Shown here piece by piece: positions 1 through 63,287 of a DNA stretch of 64,000 bases (within the stretch, counting starts at the first letter, position 1; each line of letters begins with the position of its first letter). The stretch is from a virus: the IMG/VR virus record IMGVR_UViG_3300033997_000035, positions 1 through 64,000 of that record; one strand, written 5' to 3'. The position numbers and the translations under genes are program-made. The notes beneath the pieces were generated by a model. That model made no database searches, was not told the DNA's origin, and was given only the letters and a program-made list of their open reading frames with translations.

Positions 1-1261
1 GTCTATTCTCTCATCTCACAAGGATAATCAGTTGCTACAAGAGTGTTTCCGTTTAGCATATTCACCAACTGTGCAATTCTACATTAAGAACATCCGTGAC
101 GGATGGCAGCACTTTGAGGAATACCCTTTTGTAACACATGACGTCTTGGATATGCTAACACACCTCAGCACTCGTCAATTCACTGGTAATGCTGCAATGG
201 AACTTCTGGTTGATACCCTATCGGCTATCGATTATCGTGCAGCGGAGGTTGTTTGTCGCATTATTAAGAAGGATTTAAGGTGCGGTGTTGGGCAATCTAC
301 CATCAATAAAGTGTGGAAGGATTTAATCGTAACCCCGCCTCGCAAGGGCGCTGTAAGTATGTCAGAGAAGGCTCTGTCTAAGATTAAATACCCCGCTGCT
401 ATCGAACTGAAGTCGGACGGTAGTTACTGTGCTTCTGTGTGTAGCAGTGATGGTGTGACAATGATGTCACGCAATGGAAATCCTATTACTGGATTAACCC
501 TACTGGAGAGTGAATTGTCTAATCCAGCATTTGAAGGGTTTGCACTAGAAGGTGAGCTTGTGTACGACCTGACTAAAGGGACTCGTGAGTTTGGTAACGG
601 TATTATCGGTAAGGTAATCAAAGGGACTGCCACACAAGAGGAATGTGATGGTGTCTATTACCAAGTCTGGGATTGTATTGACACTAACTATTATCAACCT
701 AAAGGAGAATATCCATTCACCAACACTGAAAGACGTAACCTACTTGAAATTATGATTCAAGAGAGTGGTTGTGAACGTATCAAACTAATTCCTCGCACCA
801 TCGTGAACTCATTTGACGAAGCTAATAGTGTGTTTGAGGGTTATGTTCGTGCTGGATTTGAAGGTGCTATCCTCAAACAACTTAATACTTATTGGGTAGA
901 TAATGGCAAGCCTGTGGATTGTGTCAAAATGAAAAGGAAGGACACTGCTGACTTGGAAATTGTTGGCATGTATGAAGGTGAAGGGAAGGCTGCTGGTAAA
1001 CTTGGTGGATTGCTGCTAGAATCTGATTGTGGTGATATCAAAGTGTCTTGTGGTAGCGGATTTTCCGATGAGCAACGAGAAATTTTTTGGAATGATAAAA
1101 ATATTGTTGGCAAAGTCGTAGAAGTAGAGTATGATTCTATCACACAGGATAAGAAAACTGGGCAACATAGTTTGTTCTTACCTATCTTCAAAGGTATTCG
1201 AGTGGATAAGATGGTTGCCGACACCAAGGTTGAGATTGAGAGTAAACAAAAACTAAAATAA
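1..1261 (+). CDS. ATP-dependent DNA ligase (frame open to the window edge, probably 5'-truncated by the window)
   Basis: ORF 32..1261 has no in-frame stop back to nt 2. Motif I AIELKSDGS (KxDG), motif III FALEGELV, motif IV EGAILK, motif V CVKMKRK. Confidence 0.85.
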   Translation, partial: SILSSHKDNQLLQECFRLAYSPTVQFYIKNIRDGWQHFEEYPFVTHDVLDMLTHLSTRQFTGNAAMELLVDTLSAIDYRAAEVVCRIIKKDLRCGVGQSTINKVWKDLIVTPPRKGAVSMSEKALSKIKYPAAIELKSDGSYCASVCSSDGVTMMSRNGNPITGLTLLESELSNPAFEGFALEGELVYDLTKGTREFGNGIIGKVIKGTATQEECDGVYYQVWDCIDTNYYQPKGEYPFTNTERRNLLEIMIQESGCERIKLIPRTIVNSFDEANSVFEGYVRAGFEGAILKQLNTYWVDNGKPVDCVKMKRKDTADLEIVGMYEGEGKAAGKLGGLLLESDCGDIKVSCGSGFSDEQREIFWNDKNIVGKVVEVEYDSITQDKKTGQHSLFLPIFKGIRVDKMVADTKVEIESKQKLK

Positions 1262-1270
1262 GGAGATGTA

Positions 1271-1420
1271 ATGGAAGTAGTAGATACGAATTTTGAATAC
1301 ACGGGTGCATTATCTGTTGGACTGGTAGACTTGTGTGATTATGAAACATGCCTTACGCACGAAGAATATGTATTAACTGAAGATGTGGATTTTGCAATCA
1401 TTATTAATAACCTAAACTAA
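1271..1420 (+). CDS. hypothetical small acidic protein (49 aa)
   Basis: ATG 5 nt after AGGAG, fills the gap between the ligase gene and the next gene; below the ORF-track cutoff. Confidence 0.4.
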   Translation: MEVVDTNFEYTGALSVGLVDLCDYETCLTHEEYVLTEDVDFAIIINNLN

Positions 1421-1430
1421 GGAGAATATT

Positions 1431-2213
1431 ATGGAGATGAATAATCTCAGAGTTAAACCATTTTACATTCAGCATGAAGATTGGATGACTGATCAAGAAG
1501 TGCAGCGAGTGTTGGATAATGCTGTCAGTGTCGGTGTGACACGTTGTCGTGGTGTGGCGGGTTTAGATAAGGAAGCTGATTACCCATTCACACCTTCAAT
1601 CTGGCGGTATTTCGTGGTAGACGGTGAAAATAATACCCGATGCTTTGACAATGTTGTATATTTCGGAAAAGACGCCGTCCTCCTCACACTAGACCAAGTT
1701 GACGAACACCTAGGGTTGACTAAACCTGAATCTGTTACCAACCTTGTTACCAATACACCAAAATCACTTGCTAATGTGAAATTAGATTGCCGCAAGCCAG
1801 ATGGTAGTATTGATGAGGAATTGTCTCGGGCATTCCAAGAAGCTTGCTTTGAACAAGGTATTGGTTGGGAGGATGAATTTGAAAATATTGAAATTCAGGA
1901 GGGGTGTTATTTCCTATACACTGGACACGAAATGTTGTTATATTCTGATGAGAATGATCGTACAGACTTTGAAGCTGAACCAGAGACGGAAATCAAATTC
2001 ACATATGAACGTAAGCTTGTATGGGATTATGAAATCGTTGCTAAGGAAGAACCCGTTGAACGTAAAGTAGTCACTATTGGTGGCGTTGAATATTACGAGG
2101 ACATGATTGCTCCGATGTTGGAAGATATGCAATCTGCCAAAGTTGTGTCAGGTGATAATGTGGTTTCGCCAATGGCAGGAAGCGGGAACCCGCCAGACAA
2201 AAAGGATAACTAG
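1431..2213 (+). CDS. hypothetical protein
   Basis: 260-aa ORF with AAGGAG RBS upstream, co-directional packing, TAG stop. Confidence 0.6.
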   Translation: MEMNNLRVKPFYIQHEDWMTDQEVQRVLDNAVSVGVTRCRGVAGLDKEADYPFTPSIWRYFVVDGENNTRCFDNVVYFGKDAVLLTLDQVDEHLGLTKPESVTNLVTNTPKSLANVKLDCRKPDGSIDEELSRAFQEACFEQGIGWEDEFENIEIQEGCYFLYTGHEMLLYSDENDRTDFEAEPETEIKFTYERKLVWDYEIVAKEEPVERKVVTIGGVEYYEDMIAPMLEDMQSAKVVSGDNVVSPMAGSGNPPDKKDN

Positions 2214-2215
2214 AA

Positions 2216-2710
2216 ATGTTTATGGTGTTGCCTATAGAAAATTGGGCAATCCTATATAAGTTGTTCATGGTGATGACCGCAGTGTTTCACCCGAATGTCC
2301 AGATACGTAAGTTTTGTATCTGGTTTTCTGCCAGTTGGGTGGTAACGGGATTTACCAAGGCATATTATCTTGATGGTGGTAGTTGGTTCATGATGCAAAC
2401 AGTTCATGAGTTGATTACCATCCTCTTGGTAATTTCCTTCCTAAGCACCATGAAATTAACAAAGGTTATTATCTTAACACAGGCAATATTCTTTGTTGGG
2501 TTGAATACCCTGCAATGGCAGACACTTACGGATTGGTTTATGCCGCCAGATAGATACATTTGGTGGAATATGGTAGGTTTTGAACTTATATTATTTAGTC
2601 TGTGGGGGAGGCATGAAGTGCTTCTGTCAATCAAGAAGCATTGGACATTTGAGAATGTTACTATGGTGTATATCATCACCTTAATTATCCTGCTTGCAGG
2701 GAACTACTAA
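2216..2710 (+). CDS. integral membrane protein (4-5 TM segments)
   Basis: Hydrophobic stretches throughout the 164-aa ORF; tightly packed after the upstream stop. Confidence 0.6.
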   Translation: MFMVLPIENWAILYKLFMVMTAVFHPNVQIRKFCIWFSASWVVTGFTKAYYLDGGSWFMMQTVHELITILLVISFLSTMKLTKVIILTQAIFFVGLNTLQWQTLTDWFMPPDRYIWWNMVGFELILFSLWGRHEVLLSIKKHWTFENVTMVYIITLIILLAGNY

Positions 2711-4152: not shown

Positions 4153-4857
4153 ATGAAGGTTGTAATCTATCGTCGTTTATCTAAAGAAGATAAGGTTAAA
4201 ACCCAGCACGGGTTTGACTCCCAGATGGCAGACATAAATTATTATCTAGCCACGTTACCAAATCATGAAGTTGTGGGGGACTTCTACGAATTCATTTCTG
4301 GTGCTGCCGACAATAAACCAGAATTGCAGAAGGCAATGAAAATTTGCCGTGAACAAAAGGCTATATTAGTTGTTGCCAAACTTGACCGTCTATCTCGTAG
4401 GGTATCACAAATTGCCCAATATATGGAGAGTGATGTCAAGTTTAGAGTGGCTAGAATGCCAAATGCTGAGAACTTACAATTACACATATTTGCGAGTTTG
4501 GCAGAGGCTGAGAGGAAGGATCTTCGTGACAGGACTAAACGTGCATGTGCAGTAGCTAAAGCCAAAGGTATACGTAGTGGTCGTGCATCACCTAATTATG
4601 GAATGAACTCTGGTAATGGACAGAAGGCCGTAGAAAGTGTGCTAAAAGCTCGTAGGGAGCAAGCTAAGGCTAAAACTGAGTATGTTGTGCCACATATACA
4701 CACAGCATTAAAGTATCTTGGTAAGCGCCCTACGCAAGCTAAAGTGGCACAGTTTCTCAATGATGCTAATGTGCCTACGCCTAATGGTAAAAATGTGTGG
4801 ACACAATCTGCTGTGTGTCGTATACTGGATAAACATAACATTAATTTATTTGCGTAG
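4153..4857 (+). CDS. small serine recombinase (resolvase/invertase family)
   Basis: N-terminal VVIYRRLSKED (catalytic Ser context), LVVAKLDRLSRR motif, basic C-terminal DNA-binding region. Confidence 0.75.
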   Translation: MKVVIYRRLSKEDKVKTQHGFDSQMADINYYLATLPNHEVVGDFYEFISGAADNKPELQKAMKICREQKAILVVAKLDRLSRRVSQIAQYMESDVKFRVARMPNAENLQLHIFASLAEAERKDLRDRTKRACAVAKAKGIRSGRASPNYGMNSGNGQKAVESVLKARREQAKAKTEYVVPHIHTALKYLGKRPTQAKVAQFLNDANVPTPNGKNVWTQSAVCRILDKHNINLFA

Positions 4858-39536: not shown

Positions 39537-39548
39537 GGAGGAATGTGA

Positions 39549-39776
39549 ATGTCATTAACACAACTACTTTCATCTTATGATGAAATTAAACTTGCTGTCC
39601 CTAGTTATCGCTTGGGGCAACATATAGTCAACACTATGAATTTAAACACCTCAGTGATTGACATGCCAGTGGACTTGTTTTATATTAAGGATGACAAACG
39701 TGCTTACGAAGTGTTTCTGGTAATGTGTGAGCAATATTGTTGGGATGTGTCAGATTTACCCGTGTTTAATAAATAA
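39549..39776 (+). CDS. hypothetical protein
   Basis: 75-aa ORF with AAGGAGG RBS. Confidence 0.55.
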   Translation: MSLTQLLSSYDEIKLAVPSYRLGQHIVNTMNLNTSVIDMPVDLFYIKDDKRAYEVFLVMCEQYCWDVSDLPVFNK

Positions 39777-39786
39777 GGAGAAATAA

Positions 39787-40074
39787 ATGTATATAGTTTT
39801 CAAACGTTCGGATGTACCTAGAGCACTCATTATCGCTTCCCAGAGCGACCCTGTTGCATGCGGACGATGTTATGCATGTAACACTAACAACCTGTGCGTT
39901 TCGCCATCACAGAGCGTCTCAGTGCTTCTGAAACAGGAGGATGATACGTTCTGGTTACAGGAAGAAGCTAATGGAACATTGTCGATGTTAGTGGGCATGT
40001 TTGGTAAGAGTAAGAACAGGTTGACGCAGCTACTTGAGCGAAACGCAATCCCTTACCGTATCGTTAAGAGTTGA
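39787..40074 (+). CDS. hypothetical protein
   Basis: 95-aa ORF with AAGGAG RBS. Confidence 0.55.
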   Translation: MYIVFKRSDVPRALIIASQSDPVACGRCYACNTNNLCVSPSQSVSVLLKQEDDTFWLQEEANGTLSMLVGMFGKSKNRLTQLLERNAIPYRIVKS

Positions 40075-40078
40075 CGTT

Positions 40079-40414
40079 ATGATAGCTTACAAACTATTCA
40101 GACTAACAAAGGATGGTCAACTAGCACCATTATTTATCAATAGGAAATTACGTGTGCCTGTTGGTGAGTGGCTGGATGCAGAGTGTCATCCAACTAAAGG
40201 ATTTGCCGTCCGACAAGGCTGGCACCTTACTCTACTACCACGTGCACCACACTTGAAGGATGAATTAAAGTCTGGAGAGAAACGTGTATGGTGTGAAGTT
40301 GAATGTGATAACTTTGAATATTTCACTAGACCAGAATCTCAGGGCGGTATGTGGGTGTTAGCCCAACGAATGAAAGTAAACCGTGTATTAACTAAGGAGG
40401 TTAAAAACAGTTAA
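40079..40414 (+). CDS. hypothetical protein
   Basis: ATG at 40079 (MIAYKLFRL...). Confidence 0.5.
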   Translation: MIAYKLFRLTKDGQLAPLFINRKLRVPVGEWLDAECHPTKGFAVRQGWHLTLLPRAPHLKDELKSGEKRVWCEVECDNFEYFTRPESQGGMWVLAQRMKVNRVLTKEVKNS

Positions 40415-40421
40415 TTAAATA

Positions 40422-40451
40422 TTGACAAACATTAACCGTTTAGTTTAAAAT
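40422..40451 (+). promoter_or_regulatory. promoter TTGACA-N18-TAAAAT
   Basis: Immediately upstream of the first tnpB. Confidence 0.55.
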
Positions 40452-40486
40452 GTAGTAACATTGGTTAAATACTATAGGAGGTCGTA

Positions 40487-41587
40487 ATGTTATTATCACA
40501 TAAGGTCGAATTACGACCTTCTAAAGAACAAGAACAATATCTATTACAACTGTGTGGAACCACAAGGCACTTGTGGAATCAACTACTTCACTACTTTAGT
40601 AGTGGTGATGTTAAATGGAATAAGAAGACCGCTAGGGAAAAGATGTACTCTTTAAGGGAAGAATTCCCTTGGTACAATGACTACTCCGCTAACATCGTTA
40701 GATGTTCTATAGATAATCTTGATAATGCTTATAAGAGGTTCTTTAAAACTAAGAAAGGTTACCCTAAGTTTAAGAGTAAACATCAGAAGCGAAGCTTCAA
40801 TATCTATGAATCTCGGAAGTTTTCTGTAGTAGGTAGGGATTTTAGAATAGAGAAATTCAATAATTCTAAGAAATCTAAACCTATTAAGATGAGGGAGAAG
40901 CTACGCTTTGATGGCAAGGTAAAACAAGCTAATGTCTCTTTCCAGAATGGAAAGTGGTTTTGCTCTTTCTTAGTAGAGGTGGAAAACTACAAAAATATCT
41001 CTGGACAACACGGAAGTGTTGGTATTGATTTAGGTATCAAAGATTTAGCTACACTATCTGATGGAACTACGTTCCAAAAGAGTAACAAACTAACTCTAAG
41101 TCTGTATAAATTAGTTAAACTTCAAAAGAAGTTATCTAAGAAAAAGAAAGGTTCTAATCGTTATGCGAAAGCCAAGCTTTCGATTAGTAAGCTTCATTTT
41201 AGAATACGTAAACAACGTGAAGCGTTGCTTCACAATGTAAGCCATACAATTACATCTAAGTATAAAACTATCTGCTTAGAGGATCTGTCTGTTTCGTCTA
41301 TGACGAAGGGTAAGAATAAGAATTTGAATAGAATGATCTTAGATGTAGGTATGTATGGGTTTCGTAGGCAACTGGAGTATAAATCTTTCTTAAGAGGTGT
41401 TGACATCTACTTCGTGGATAGATATTATCCATCAAGTAAGATTCACAACGAATGTGGATTTAAGAACGATAACCTTAAACTAGGAGAATCTTCTTGGAAG
41501 TGTAATAACTGCGGTCAACTTGTTGACCGAGATTTAAATGCCTCTAAGAATATCCTTAAAGAAGGTTTGCGTTTAGCAAACAAGTAA
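40487..41587 (+). CDS. tnpB: TnpB (IS200/IS605-IS607 family OrfB, RNA-guided RuvC nuclease)
   Basis: N-terminal HKVELRPSKEQEQ. RuvC residues VGIDLGIKD, ICLEDLS and VDRDLNASKNI. C-terminal zinc-finger region. Confidence 0.9.
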   Translation: MLLSHKVELRPSKEQEQYLLQLCGTTRHLWNQLLHYFSSGDVKWNKKTAREKMYSLREEFPWYNDYSANIVRCSIDNLDNAYKRFFKTKKGYPKFKSKHQKRSFNIYESRKFSVVGRDFRIEKFNNSKKSKPIKMREKLRFDGKVKQANVSFQNGKWFCSFLVEVENYKNISGQHGSVGIDLGIKDLATLSDGTTFQKSNKLTLSLYKLVKLQKKLSKKKKGSNRYAKAKLSISKLHFRIRKQREALLHNVSHTITSKYKTICLEDLSVSSMTKGKNKNLNRMILDVGMYGFRRQLEYKSFLRGVDIYFVDRYYPSSKIHNECGFKNDNLKLGESSWKCNNCGQLVDRDLNASKNILKEGLRLANK

Positions 41588-41700
41588 AGAATAAAGATGA
41601 GACAGATTTCAGCTCATCTATAAACCCTACGTAGTAGGAGTGTAAGGCTTTGCTTGCAAAGCATCTCTGTTAATAACGTAGATTTGTTAACATTAGTTAA
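41480..41700 (+). ncRNA. candidate omega (right-end) RNA of TnpB copy 1
   Basis: Inferred from TnpB biology. Hairpins in the 3' flank: AGATGAG-N11-CTCATCT, CCTAC-GTA-GTAGG, GCTTTGC-TT-GCAAAGC. Boundaries not determined. Confidence 0.3.
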
Positions 41701-41718
41701 GGATTAGGAGTCGGAAAC

Positions 41719-41901
41719 ATGCAATTTAACTTCTCATTGTTAGATTTAGATATCGATGCACGAACACACACTTATGCGGCTTATTTGTGTAATGTATGGA
41801 GTGTCGATAAGGAAAGTGATACTTCGTTGCTACATGTAGCTTATGATGGTATTGCTAAACGAGTTTATTTGTCTGTGCTAGGATACACACTTCTAGGCTA
41901 G
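41719..41901 (+). CDS. hypothetical protein
   Basis: 60-aa ORF. Its 5' UTR (TAACATTAGTTAA..TAGGAGTCG) is duplicated upstream of tnpB. Confidence 0.45.
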   Translation: MQFNFSLLDLDIDARTHTYAAYLCNVWSVDKESDTSLLHVAYDGIAKRVYLSVLGYTLLG

Positions 41902-41941
41902 ATAATTAAAGAATTCAATTATCTACCTTGATAAATACTCA

Positions 41942-41970
41942 TTGAATTGGTGTAGGATGGGTGGTATAAT
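41942..41970 (+). promoter_or_regulatory. promoter TTGAAT-N17-TATAAT
   Basis: -35 at 41942-41947, -10 at 41965-41970; about 100-nt leader before the SSB-like gene. Confidence 0.55.
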
Positions 41971-42073
41971 TGTCTATCAGGAGAATTATTCCTGAGTGCA
42001 CTACGAGTAACTAGGTAGTGTTTATACATGGTAGCGGAAACGCTGATTTTTAAATAAAGATGAGGTAATATTA

Positions 42074-43219
42074 ATGCAATTTACATTTAACCCAGAAGTT
42101 CCAAAACAATCTCCACGTCCTCAGCAACAACGTGAAAGTAATGTTGATTGGGACAAGGTAAATGAATATCAAGCTAGTGTGCTTGGTATTGGTAAGCACA
42201 GCCTGATTGGTCGGATTGTGCAACTGTATGATTTGGGACTACAAGAACGTCAGGAAAAGTCTATCCCTTGGGATGCTACAAGTGAAAAAGACCACGGGTG
42301 GCGATTAGAGATTAACCCAGAAACTGGACTACAGAAAGATCCTTCTGCTAAAATCGAGATGGGTAAGTATAAGGGTAAAGAACAGGAGATCCTTACTTAC
42401 AAACCAACCGATGTTAGTCAGATGGCAATCGCTGTAGACTTCCCTGAGAAGATGATGAACTTATCCCAGTTCTTCAATCCCGAAGGTGAGCAAGTAGAAA
42501 AACCATTCCGTGATATTATTGGTCAAAATGGTTTTGGTGGTTTCCGAATTGTAGATGGTAATCGTGTGAACGTTATTGCACGTCCATTCAACTTGGCAGA
42601 GACCAACGTCAACCGTAATAAAAAGGATGCACCGTATCATTCTGCATTTGCTAAGAATGGTATGTTGTATGAACTTGCAGATTATTGTGGTGCGTTGGCA
42701 CCAGATGGTAACTTCCATATTGCAGATCTTACCAACCTGATTGGTAAAGTGTGTATGTTCGAAGTGGAAGTGAAGTGGAATGAGTGGAAGGATAAAAAAT
42801 CTGGGGAGACTAAGCGTAAGCTTGAAACTGATATTAAACCATCGGCACGTATGAGTCCTCGTGATGAAGCTTATTACAACTCAGACCTCAAACCCAAACT
42901 TGACGATGATGTATTAGGTGGCCTGTTGTTCCAAGGCGGTAACCGTGAACGAGATTTGAAGGAAGCTCGTGCTATTGTTATCAACACCATGTCATTGGCT
43001 AAGAACTGGAATGAGTCTAAGTTGAAGGCAGAATTAGAAGCTGTTCGTGCAGGTGGACAACAATCACCTTCGCAAACCCCTGTAGAAGCTCCTGAGAAGC
43101 ACGTAGCCGCGAGTTCTCAACCAGCCAATACGATGGTAGCACCGCAGCCTGTTAACTCAGTAGCGAGTGTTTCAGGTGGGTTGGACGAAGGTTGGGATGA
43201 CGATAAATACCCATTCTAA
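42074..43219 (+). CDS. ssDNA-binding-like protein with SSB-type acidic C-terminal tip
   Basis: C-terminus ...GWDDDKYPF resembles the DDDIPF tail of bacterial SSB and the acidic aromatic tail of T7 gp2.5. A Pro/Gln/Ala-rich linker precedes it. Lies in the replication block. Confidence 0.45.
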   Translation: MQFTFNPEVPKQSPRPQQQRESNVDWDKVNEYQASVLGIGKHSLIGRIVQLYDLGLQERQEKSIPWDATSEKDHGWRLEINPETGLQKDPSAKIEMGKYKGKEQEILTYKPTDVSQMAIAVDFPEKMMNLSQFFNPEGEQVEKPFRDIIGQNGFGGFRIVDGNRVNVIARPFNLAETNVNRNKKDAPYHSAFAKNGMLYELADYCGALAPDGNFHIADLTNLIGKVCMFEVEVKWNEWKDKKSGETKRKLETDIKPSARMSPRDEAYYNSDLKPKLDDDVLGGLLFQGGNRERDLKEARAIVINTMSLAKNWNESKLKAELEAVRAGGQQSPSQTPVEAPEKHVAASSQPANTMVAPQPVNSVASVSGGLDEGWDDDKYPF

Positions 43220-62032: not shown

Positions 62033-62230
62033 ATGTATTCACCAAAGCAATTCGCAGAGAAGATAGGAAAGAGTGTAAAAACCCTTCAACGTTGGGATAA
62101 TGAAGGTATTTTTAAGGCACATCGCACACCGACAAATCGAAGGTATTATACAGAAGAAGACTTGCAGATATATTTAAGCGGGGAGTTTAACAGTGTTATT
62201 AGCACACAAAATAGAGATAAGACCAACTAA
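62033..62230 (+). pseudogene. tnpA: IS607-type TnpA remnant (MerR-like HTH only; serine-recombinase catalytic domain missing)
   Basis: MYSPKQFAEKIGKSVKTLQRWDNEGIFKAHRTPTNRRYYTEEDL is the N-terminal HTH typical of IS607 TnpA. The ORF ends after 65 aa, overlapping the tnpB start. Confidence 0.6.
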
Positions 62231-63287
62231 GGAACAAGAACAATTCTTTGAACAAGCATGTGGGAGTTCTCGCCACCTGTGGAATAACTTAGTTGGACAT
62301 TTTTCCAATAAAGAAAACAAATTTTCTAAGAAGGCTGCAAGAAATTTATATTACAAGAGTCGTGAAGATTTTGAATGGTATAATGGCATCAGTGCTGAAA
62401 TTTTCCAGTCTACTATAGATAATTTAGAATCAGCTTTTAAGGGCTTCTTTAAATCGGGAAAGGGATTTCCTAAGTTTAAAAAGAAAGGGATTAAAGACTC
62501 CTTCCGTATTACACAATCCCTTAAATTTTCTATTATTGGAAGGGAACTTCGTCTTGAGAAGTTTAACAAGACTAAGAACACGAGACCTATCCTATTAAGA
62601 GAAAAGTTGAGATTTACAGGAAAAACTAAACAAGTAACTGTCAGTAAAACAGGCGGGAAGTGGTTTGCTTCGGTATTAGTGGAAGTTGAATCTGGATATA
62701 AACTTAAGCAACCTACATGTAAAAGTGTTGGTGTGGACTTAGGTATTAAAACACTGGTAACTACCTCTGAGGGAGAATCTATAGGTAAATCCAACAAATT
62801 ATCTATACAATTAGGTAAACTAGCTAAATTACAACAAAGACTTGCCAAACAAAAGAAAGGTAGTAATCGTAGAGCGAAAACCAAGCGTAAGATCAGTAAA
62901 CTACATTTCTATGTTGGGCAACAAAGAAAAGCATTGCTACACTGTGTAAGTGATAAACTTACTTCAGCATACAATGTAATATGTATGGAAGACTTAGATG
63001 TCAAAGGTATGATTGAGAAAGGGACTACTTCACTATCTCGGATGGTTTCTGATGTAGGTATGTATGAACTAAAACGACAGTGTATCTACAAGTCTTTCTT
63101 GCGTGGAGGAAGAGTATTATTTGTTGACCAATACTTCCCTTCAAGTAAAATGTGTTCATGTTGCGGTAATATCAAACAAGATTTAAAACTTTCAGATAGA
63201 GTATATACTTGCGATTGTGGTTTATCCATGAACAGGGATTTGAACGCTGCAAGAAATATCTTGATAGAAGGCTTGAAACAATTATAG
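62193..63287 (+). CDS. tnpB: TnpB (second copy, paralogue of 40487..41587)
   Basis: HKIEIRPTKEQEQ. RuvC residues VGVDLGIKT, ICMEDLD and MNRDLNAARNI. Zinc finger CSCCG...CDCG. GTG start. Confidence 0.9.
   Translation: MLLAHKIEIRPTKEQEQFFEQACGSSRHLWNNLVGHFSNKENKFSKKAARNLYYKSREDFEWYNGISAEIFQSTIDNLESAFKGFFKSGKGFPKFKKKGIKDSFRITQSLKFSIIGRELRLEKFNKTKNTRPILLREKLRFTGKTKQVTVSKTGGKWFASVLVEVESGYKLKQPTCKSVGVDLGIKTLVTTSEGESIGKSNKLSIQLGKLAKLQQRLAKQKKGSNRRAKTKRKISKLHFYVGQQRKALLHCVSDKLTSAYNVICMEDLDVKGMIEKGTTSLSRMVSDVGMYELKRQCIYKSFLRGGRVLFVDQYFPSSKMCSCCGNIKQDLKLSDRVYTCDCGLSMNRDLNAARNILIEGLKQL

Follow-up and report, generated by a model that had tools for sequence, protein, structure and literature searches.

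The described systems closest to the element reported here are the IS607 elements with TnpB and a right-end RNA (reRNA), such as ISFba1 (PMC11061315, PMC6188088). IS607 elements end in GG, insert at a GG target without target-site duplication (TSD) and carry short direct subterminal motifs, bound by the transposase TnpA, up to ~60-78 bp inside the end (PMC6188088), and AGGAG or GAGGG have been published as target-adjacent motifs (TAMs) of IS607 TnpB (PMC11061315). We analysed a stretch of 64,000 nucleotides (the window) from IMG/VR record IMGVR_UViG_3300033997_000035, a phage genome of 128,076 bp that has direct terminal repeats and of which the window is the first half. In the window, a tnpB gene lies within an insertion that shares with IS607 elements the GG target, the GG right end and the lack of a TSD. 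Both ends also contain subterminal direct motifs, the left flank is purine-rich and AGGAG-like at the place of the TAM, the predicted guide is taken from the right flank, and a sister copy in the same phage genome retains the N-terminal helix-turn-helix (HTH) of an IS607 TnpA. Unlike IS607 elements, the phage element has no serine transposase, its RNA has no Rfam match at E <= 1, its TnpB is nearer to the IS200/IS605 models, it possesses a strong promoter of its own and stop codons in all three frames, and its host is a phage of ~128 kb with terminal repeats. Taken as a whole, we consider it probable that this is a solo 1314-bp TnpB element, placed after the GG of a Shine-Dalgarno (SD) sequence, that a repeat found around tnpB is a motif internal to the element, and that the element spreads by homing. 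All features of the element and of its flanking genes are given as window positions and lie on the + strand.

The boundaries of the insertion could be set because the sequence of two ENA contigs, L074 and L075, which hold the same locus without the element, is contiguous across the GG. We reached this empty site via homologues of the protein encoded upstream and then via the contigs encoding those homologues. The closest of many homologues (93% identity) is encoded on both contigs, with the 60-amino-acid (aa) open reading frame (ORF) that follows the element in the window directly next to it. A BLAST search with the left flank in 'distant' mode against phage records gave no match, and a related-locus search with the upstream protein found nothing. 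Window 39548-40400 aligned to L074 1969-2822 and window 41713-41972 to L074 2821-3080, with a 2-nt overlap that is the GG. The empty site of both contigs reads ...ACTAAGGAGG/AACTATGCAATTT (the slash marks the junction), the left junction in the window ...ACTAAGGAGG/TTAAAAACAGTTAATT and the right junction ...GGATTAGGAGTCGG/AAACATGCAATTT. By this alignment, the insertion is window 40401-41714, 1314 bp, with the boundaries 40400/40401 and 41714/41715. It sits after the GG of the AGGAGG SD of the 60-aa ORF, 4 nt ahead of the ATG. The terminal GG of the right end aligns to the same empty-site GG as 40399-40400, and there is no target duplication beyond this shared GG. A contig of run X4 is a second empty-type allele, which reads ...CATAGGA/GGAAACATGCAATTT and carries GGAGG/AAACATGCAATTT. 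Run X4 ('organism A') also contained many variants of the element and its flanks at 85-99% identity, among them an insertion context identical to that of contig L070 and a contig that skips 40531-41018. As read from the sequence, the element is non-autonomous; its parts are a left end that carries a promoter of its own, tnpB, an omega/reRNA-like scaffold and a GG terminus.

With the empty site at hand, the repeat around tnpB could be interpreted. The sequence-only reading had noticed it before tnpB and after the element, and in this it was right: TAACATTRGTTAA has exactly two exact matches in 64 kb, one on either side of tnpB, each followed by TAGGAG(G)TCG. The left copy is TAACATTGGTTAA-N6-TAGGAGGTCG at 40456-40484 and the right one TAACATTAGTTAA-N4-TAGGAGTCG at 41688-41713. 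Their local alignment scored 23, compared with 15.2 +/- 2.9 for shuffled sequences, and 10 of 500 shuffles reached this score. In the left copy we see the short leader of tnpB itself (~30 nt), in which the SD AGGAGG stands behind a tandem pair of (T)WGTTAA-type motifs. It begins ~5 nt past the -10 box and hence spans essentially the whole 5' untranslated region (UTR) of tnpB, 56-84 nt inside the left end of the element. That reading had further taken the 5' UTR of the downstream gene as the site into which the element inserted or which it copied, the two copies being a duplication of the target leader that marks the insertion boundaries. The copies are indeed collinear, with a hairpin, an SD and an ATG in this order, and unique in the window. 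However, the L074/L075 empty site has neither of them, and TAACATTAGTTAA is also absent from the run X4 allele. The native leader of the 60-aa ORF in the empty site is ...ACTAAGGAGGAACTATG and differs from both. The comparison with element-free relatives had been set beforehand as a test, and no duplicated leader was found there. Furthermore, in relatives at unrelated loci the left copy is likewise conserved within the element, the right copy is the conserved terminal hairpin P5 (see below) plus the GG terminus and is carried to every locus, and the insertion in the window occurred without target duplication. Since neither copy is in the empty site, both are, on this comparison, parts of the element and not of the downstream gene's leader; the repeat does not mark the boundaries, and a duplicated target leader appears to us hardly credible.

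The similarity of the two copies is seen in the family as well. In the canonical subgroup, leader and right end each hold a pair of (T)WGTTAA(C) units at a distance of ~10 bp, and behind the pair come an A/T-rich stretch and AGG. The density of WGTTAA is 23.6 per kb in the right end compared with 1.2 per kb across the window. The leaders were significantly similar to family right ends in six of the eight elements with a canonical left end (p <= 0.003); the element of Vibrio phage 501E54-1 (V501) was marginal (p = 0.047). The best match of a leader was usually the right end of another element. The window leader, for instance, scored 26 with the right end of L064 and 21 with its own. The 12/13 identity of the window copies is common to the sister element in L070 and looks like a lineage-specific detail over a family-level architecture. 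Most simply, the motif pair would represent IS607-style subterminal direct repeats left from a transposase-bearing ancestor, and the simplest reading of the right-end copy is that it is now retained because it forms P5. A regulatory role of the leader copy, as a mimic of the RNA 3' module or as a site for a 65-aa HTH protein encoded elsewhere in the genome, is possible but unsupported. In the first of these forms the leader would copy the 3' module of the omega RNA (P5 and AGGAG), so that TnpB or another module-binding protein binds the tnpB mRNA or promoter-proximal DNA and autoregulates the gene. Such mimicry would fit a leader copy that covers nearly the entire 5' UTR and the recurrence of right-end-like leaders in the canonical subgroup. 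It would also fit the IMG/VR contig G001 (L028 590-640 and 1880-1935), where a stretch of 46 nt ahead of tnpB is similar to the right-end terminus and the downstream gene's leader, up to AAAGGAGGTT, with an alignment score reached in none of 500 shuffles; no empty site that could resolve this similarity was found for G001. On the other side, nine of 17 elements with an intact tnpB have no right-end-like leader, the best matches to right ends of other elements leave no element-specific co-variation, the window hairpins have only 4-5 AT-rich base pairs, and the binding is putative. We regard this mimicry as improbable. The left copy is dispensable, since the nine relatives without the motif keep tnpB intact. 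The idea that each leader co-evolves with its own right end was dropped, as the own-pair score was significant only for the window, 355E48.1 (V355) and G001, and the V355 similarity is a target-derived direct repeat. TAAC-N4-GTTA as a general regulatory motif of the phage was also rejected; its near-matches are scattered in coding sequence.

The 3' flank of tnpB had been described as hairpin-rich and as expected for an omega-RNA scaffold, and covarying helices in 19 relatives support this. The sequence from just past the stop codon to CGTAGAT (41593-41684) is 83% identical across these relatives. RNAalifold and manual structure building gave a scaffold of four helices in this interval: P1 (41595-41601 with 41613-41619), the long-range P2 (41627-41632 with 41676-41681), P3 (41637-41641 with 41664-41668) and P4 (41648-41652 with 41657-41661). 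In the 19 sequences, 95.3% of the P1-P4 cells were paired, compared with 40-50% when the partners were slid. Compensatory double changes were found in 28 cells, where 9.6 were expected, and none of 500 shuffles reached 28. We base the structure on this covariation and not on the single-sequence fold of the right end, which was not significant alone (z = -1.15). CGTAGAT is followed in every relative by a terminal hairpin, P5, at the same place. In the window it is TTAAC-ATTA-GTTAA (41687-41700), the right 13-mer copy, whereas the stems at this position are unrelated between relatives: ACGAATG/CATTCGT, ACAAATG/CATTTGT, AACAAA/TTTGTT, AAAGAAC/GGTTCTTT and ACAAAC/GTTTGT. The right end terminates with the 11-mer TTAGGAGTCGG (41704-41714), which ends in GG; 12 of 13 relatives end TTAnnnAT[C/A]GG. 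The flank fits an omega RNA or reRNA with a guide beginning at 41715, as judged from the sequence. The guide had been placed at or beyond about 41690; it would indeed lie just past the scaffold, with its start shifted to 41715. At E <= 1, Rfam gave one chance miRNA match over 40300-42100 and no known omega, reRNA or RAGATH family, the presence of the RAGATH-18 model among the matchable models not having been separately checked. Among the sequencing runs recorded as RNA, none contained the stretch. A promoter-like stretch, TTGACA-N17-TATTAT (11/12), lies inside tnpB at 41400-41428, ~190 nt ahead of the stop codon, and G001 has the same; it could drive transcription of the omega RNA, although as coding sequence it is constrained anyway. 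In Shewanella phage 1/4 (L019 6536-6701) a complete right end with an omega-like scaffold exists without tnpB. Of the coding sequence no more than the final ~20 nt are left there, fused to a 36-codon ORF; this is a solo guide-RNA remnant.

The tnpB gene (40487-41587), the single long ORF of the region, encodes 366 aa and is, as had been claimed, complete with an intact RuvC triad. It has the domains HTH_OrfB_IS605, OrfB_IS605 and Cas12f1-like TNB (PF12323, PF01385, PF07282). D181, E265 and D349 align to D191, E278 and D361 of ISDra2 TnpB, and H320/C323/C339/C342 form the zinc site. With 268 bits against a cut-off of 100, the NCBIfam model guided_TnpB assigned the protein to the RNA-guided TnpB subfamily. 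Of the characters of a TnpB (OMEGA) RNA-guided nuclease, the domain architecture, the intact RuvC D-E-D triad and a conserved structured RNA sequence at the 3' end were found here, and TAM-dependent cleavage guided by this RNA is predicted. The element resembles the ISDra2 TnpB-omega RNA system of the IS200/IS605 type in these aligned RuvC residues and in that the omega RNA would likewise come from the 3' end of tnpB together with the right end. It differs from ISDra2 in that it has no Y1 TnpA, its target is GG and not TTGAT, its left-end motif lies 56 nt inside the end and its subterminal hairpins are arranged differently.

Relatives were found by DNA and protein searches in Vibrio phages 1.193.O (V1193), 501E54-1, IBT_VpB-34 and 355E48.1, in IMG/VR contigs and in many metagenome contigs at 82-90% aa identity. 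The latter occupy at least 12 unrelated gene junctions of marine phages (contexts were fetched for ten proteins), next to RNR, RdgC, portal, Dit-like and tail-chaperone-like genes. An exact scan of viral contigs with the right-end 20-mer gave no match. A looser right-end pattern retrieved few true members, L019 and L022 among viral contigs and L039 and L049 from metagenomes, the remainder being chance, and a protein scan of genome contigs found only relatives of 31-34%. Empty sites were available for three relatives: V1193 and V355, both compared with Vibrio phage 1.187.O, and V501, compared with Vibrio phage 424E50-1. The left flanks end in GG in all ten cases, the right ends in 12 of 13, and all eight canonical left junctions read GG/N2-6/AA[CT]AGTTA. 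The five bases left of the insertion were purine-rich: AAAGG in four of the ten flanks, GGAGG in two, and AGAGG, CAAGG, GAAGG and GTTGG in one each. At first the junctions seemed to show an 11-bp 'TSD' that includes AGGAG; with more junctions, we gave this reading up for the GG boundaries. Right ends always have T at position -4, where nine of ten flanks have a purine; this difference could spare the occupied site from self-cleavage.

Several observations on target sites may be added. Three right flanks (L001, L002, L069) whose target genes are unrelated have ATGACTA in common, at about positions 10-18 counted from the insertion, and TTTGTAACAG follows the right end at two loci (L063, L064). 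Judging from such flanks, target choice may be sequence-directed beyond GG. The leader of a portal gene, just past its -10 box, was struck independently by the elements of 355E48.1 and of L066/L067, with breakpoints a few nt apart (L004 2020-2075 and 3280-3310; L066 ~1085-1200 and 2420-2440; empty site L032 770-800), and in both insertions tnpB uses the portal promoter. L066 has two tnpB genes head to head, at 1-949 (-) and 1201-2301 (+).

No transposase adjoins tnpB, and Y1 transposase (PF01797) is lacking from the whole 128-kb genome. The earlier claim that tnpB stands alone holds to this extent; it has to be amended by a tnpB paralogue in the same genome, 54.5% identical, which runs from a GTG start at 62193 to about 63287 (~62193-63287; unit 62033-63287). 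A 65-aa ORF (62033-62230) overlaps its start and encodes a MerR-type HTH whose best NCBIfam match is positions 1-46 of the IS607 transposase, a relic of the TnpA HTH. The same arrangement of HTH ORF and tnpB was seen in Vibrio phage 1.187.O (L024 1338-2595). The only gene of the genome with a resolvase domain (4153-4857) encodes a 234-aa serine recombinase with an N-terminal catalytic domain and a partial 'Recombinase' domain. It was rejected as a trans-acting TnpA because its catalytic domain comes first, which is not the order of an IS607 TnpA; a similar gene is found in L064 and L065, where it follows the tnpB element at a distance of ~700 nt. A bacterial homologue of 48% identity, from Vibrio agarivorans, had no TnpA in its context.

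One might consider that the element is of a still mobilisable IS607 type, with the WGTTAA pairs as live sites for a serine transposase that a host or a co-infecting element supplies in trans, or for the 65-aa HTH protein, and with transposase-driven spread. The GG target, the GG terminus and the lack of a TSD in the window are the signature of IS607 TnpA, direct subterminal motifs are present in both ends, and the relic of the TnpA HTH is encoded in the same genome. Yet no intact IS607 TnpA occurs in the genome or beside about 20 relatives, the left ends are heavily rearranged or truncated in half of the family, and several insertions bear 6-11-nt repeats at the left junction. Such repeats are not made by classical IS607 transposition. 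We therefore hold a transposase-driven spread to be decidedly unlikely. Of the characters of IS607, GG/GG and the direct subterminal motifs were found, a serine TnpA with N-terminal HTH and an IS607-type TnpB sequence were not, and the lack of a TSD is seen in the window, with 6-11-nt direct repeats at the left junction in four of 11 relatives. The characters of IS200/IS605, a Y1 HUH TnpA and insertion 3' of an AT-rich tetra- or pentanucleotide, are absent, and all targets end in GG. We call the element IS607-like in architecture and probable ancestry and not a demonstrated member, because its protein fits IS200/IS605 models better and no intact TnpA is near the relatives.

What the element might do follows from comparing its right flank with the empty sites. 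This comparison predicts as guide-encoding flank AAACATGCAATTTAACTTCT (41715-41734), which spans the start codon of the 60-aa ORF, and GGAGG followed by AAACATGCAATTTAAC as the TAM side and target in the empty allele. The guide of the window matches the run X4 allele perfectly over the stretch seen and has no second match in the 128-kb genome. The 20 nt past the V501 right end match the empty site of 424E50-1 at 20 of 20 positions, adjoining AAGG, and the V1193 guide matches the empty site of 1.187.O except at position 3. The guide region differs at every locus and is always the local flank, and loci that are nearly identical otherwise differ in having the element or not. Presence/absence polymorphism together with an empty allele that fits the predicted specificity, as would be expected for homing, was thus found in the window, V501 and V1193 comparisons. 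TnpB would load an RNA composed of the scaffold and ~16-20 nt of flank from 41715. The complex would recognise a purine-rich TAM ending in GG (AGGAGG here) beside the same sequence in co-infecting element-free relatives and would cut there, and recombinational repair would then copy the element in. Given the intact nuclease site, the guides that equal the flanks, the presence/absence polymorphism and the 20/20 match, the most likely activity would be this RNA-guided cleavage of empty alleles in co-infecting relatives and recombinational copying. The category of 'transposon non-restorative homing' is discussed in PMC13565253.

The same observations bear on the idea that the phage has domesticated TnpB and directs it, with a fixed guide, at its host or at rival phages in the way of TldR or Cas12, instead of harbouring a selfish element. 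A tnpB with its own promoter and no transposase would suit such a role. The sequence past the right end, however, differs per locus and equals the local flank, some of the near-identical loci have the element and others lack it, no other sequence in the phage genome matches the guide, and the RuvC site is intact, unlike that of TldR. We see next to no probability for domestication. The homing reading that we favour brings the element close to T4-like free-standing homing endonuclease genes (HEGs) such as SegF and Mob, in which, too, a nuclease gene with its own promoter sits tightly between conserved genes of the phage, varies in presence among related phages and has as predicted target the empty allele of a co-infecting relative. 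Unlike there, recognition would be RNA-guided and self-reprogramming from the flank, and the boundaries are discrete (GG/...GG/) when compared with HEG islands. It also resembles the TnpA-less TnpB of IStrons, where TnpB is intact after transposase loss, implying mobility or retention by homing. Unlike IStrons, the phage element has no group I intron, and polarity is avoided by stop codons in the left end and an SD in the right end, not by splicing.

A number of points weigh against the overall reading as an IS607-like, homing element. NCBIfam IS607_TnpB scored 181.5 bits (cut-off 350), less than IS200_TnpB with 252.9 bits (cut-off 425), both below their cut-offs. The best solved-structure match was ISDra2 TnpB (PDB 8exa, 8h1j; E 4.5e-46), and PDB chain 8iaz (384 aa, deposited only as 'Transposase'), a putative IS607 TnpB, followed with E 1.2e-35. 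A full IS607 TnpA was found beside none of about 20 relatives, and the role of the leader copy as a transposase-binding site is putative and unproven. In nine of 17 relatives the left end is rearranged or truncated, without the leader motif, while tnpB is intact. In four of 11 relatives the first 6-11 nt of the right flank recur as a direct repeat immediately behind the left GG, and the canonical start of the left end is lost. L074, the closest empty allele, mismatches the window guide at positions 3 and 4. Finally, omega RNA, RNA ends and guide are all predicted, and the TAM, inferred from ten left flanks, is putative.

The left-junction repeats just mentioned are ATTTATA in L070, AGAAGTAA in 1.193.O, ATGAATACTAA in L069 and TTATAA or CTGTTATAA in 355E48.1, and all are shorter than the published 16-22-nt cut distance of TnpB. 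We speculate that repeats of 6-11 nt would fit a break repair that retains part of the 3' tail of the cut target. A more far-reaching scenario is that no transposase takes part when the family spreads to new junctions: a site next to a TAM would be cut by TnpB, and repair by microhomology on the left side, from an element-bearing genome, would keep 6-11 nt of the target and trim the left end. This would explain precise right ends and ragged left ends, repeats that start at the GG and are shorter than 16-22 nt, and unrelated targets that look alike. We give this scenario a small but not negligible chance; if it were true, the right-end-like leader could functionally imitate the 3' module of the omega RNA.

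The left end (40401-40486) contains the three-frame TAA stops, the core AACAGTTAATT (40406-40416), the promoter and the tnpB leader. The core is conserved in eight relatives as GG/N2-6/AA[CT]AGTTA, and both the megablast similarity and the loose end of one contig start at 40406. The sigma-70-like tnpB promoter (40422-40451), TTGACA (40422-40427)-N18-TAAAAT (40446-40451), had been recognized from the sequence alone and could be confirmed; it matches 11 of 12 consensus positions and is kept in the nearest relatives V1193, V501, L063, L070 and L071.

The insertion changed both neighbouring genes. The upstream phage gene (40079-40414) takes its last four codons and stop codon from the left end of the element. 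Its empty-site homologue in L074 (116 aa) has the end ...KILTKEELCNLTSHC* and an overlap of 25 nt with the next ORF, whereas the protein in the window ends ...VLTKEVKNS*, its stop being a TAA of the left end. TAA occurs in all three frames within the first 18 nt of the left end (40402-04, 40412-14, 40416-18), and therefore the truncated upstream gene terminates. The native SD AGGAGG of the downstream ORF (40395-40400), at the end of which the alignment to the empty site stops exactly, is now stranded as the left flank ending in GG, the target GG and putative TAM. The displaced gene, the 60-aa ORF at 41719-41901, is kept in L074 and L075 with 5/60 aa differences by eye. AGGAG at 41706-41710 of the right end lies 8 nt before its ATG (41719) and replaces the displaced SD, so that the gene keeps a ribosome-binding site. 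That tnpB and the displaced gene would both keep such a site had been anticipated, and both do have AGGAG; the cause is the element's own ends and not a duplicated UTR. The 60-aa ORF (41719-41728) and the next gene, of 381 aa (42074-42083), both begin with ATGCAATTTA (MQF...), an identity of 10 nt.

In conclusion, the phage carries a solo TnpB/omega element, which is well defined and of unusually clear anatomy but ordinary in kind. An element that targets GG or AGGAG, the Shine-Dalgarno sequence, can sit within tightly packed phage operons without polarity, which is avoided by the stop codons from its left end and the substitute SD from its right end. Many phage genes of this family, annotated as 'transposase' or as 'coil containing protein', are TnpB elements whose ends can be defined. 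The locus offers a clean natural case of putative RNA-guided homing between phages, with exact boundaries, a known empty allele and a predicted TAM and guide, and the isolated sister pair of Vibrio phages 501E54-1 and 424E50-1 adds to it a complete guide-to-empty-site match.

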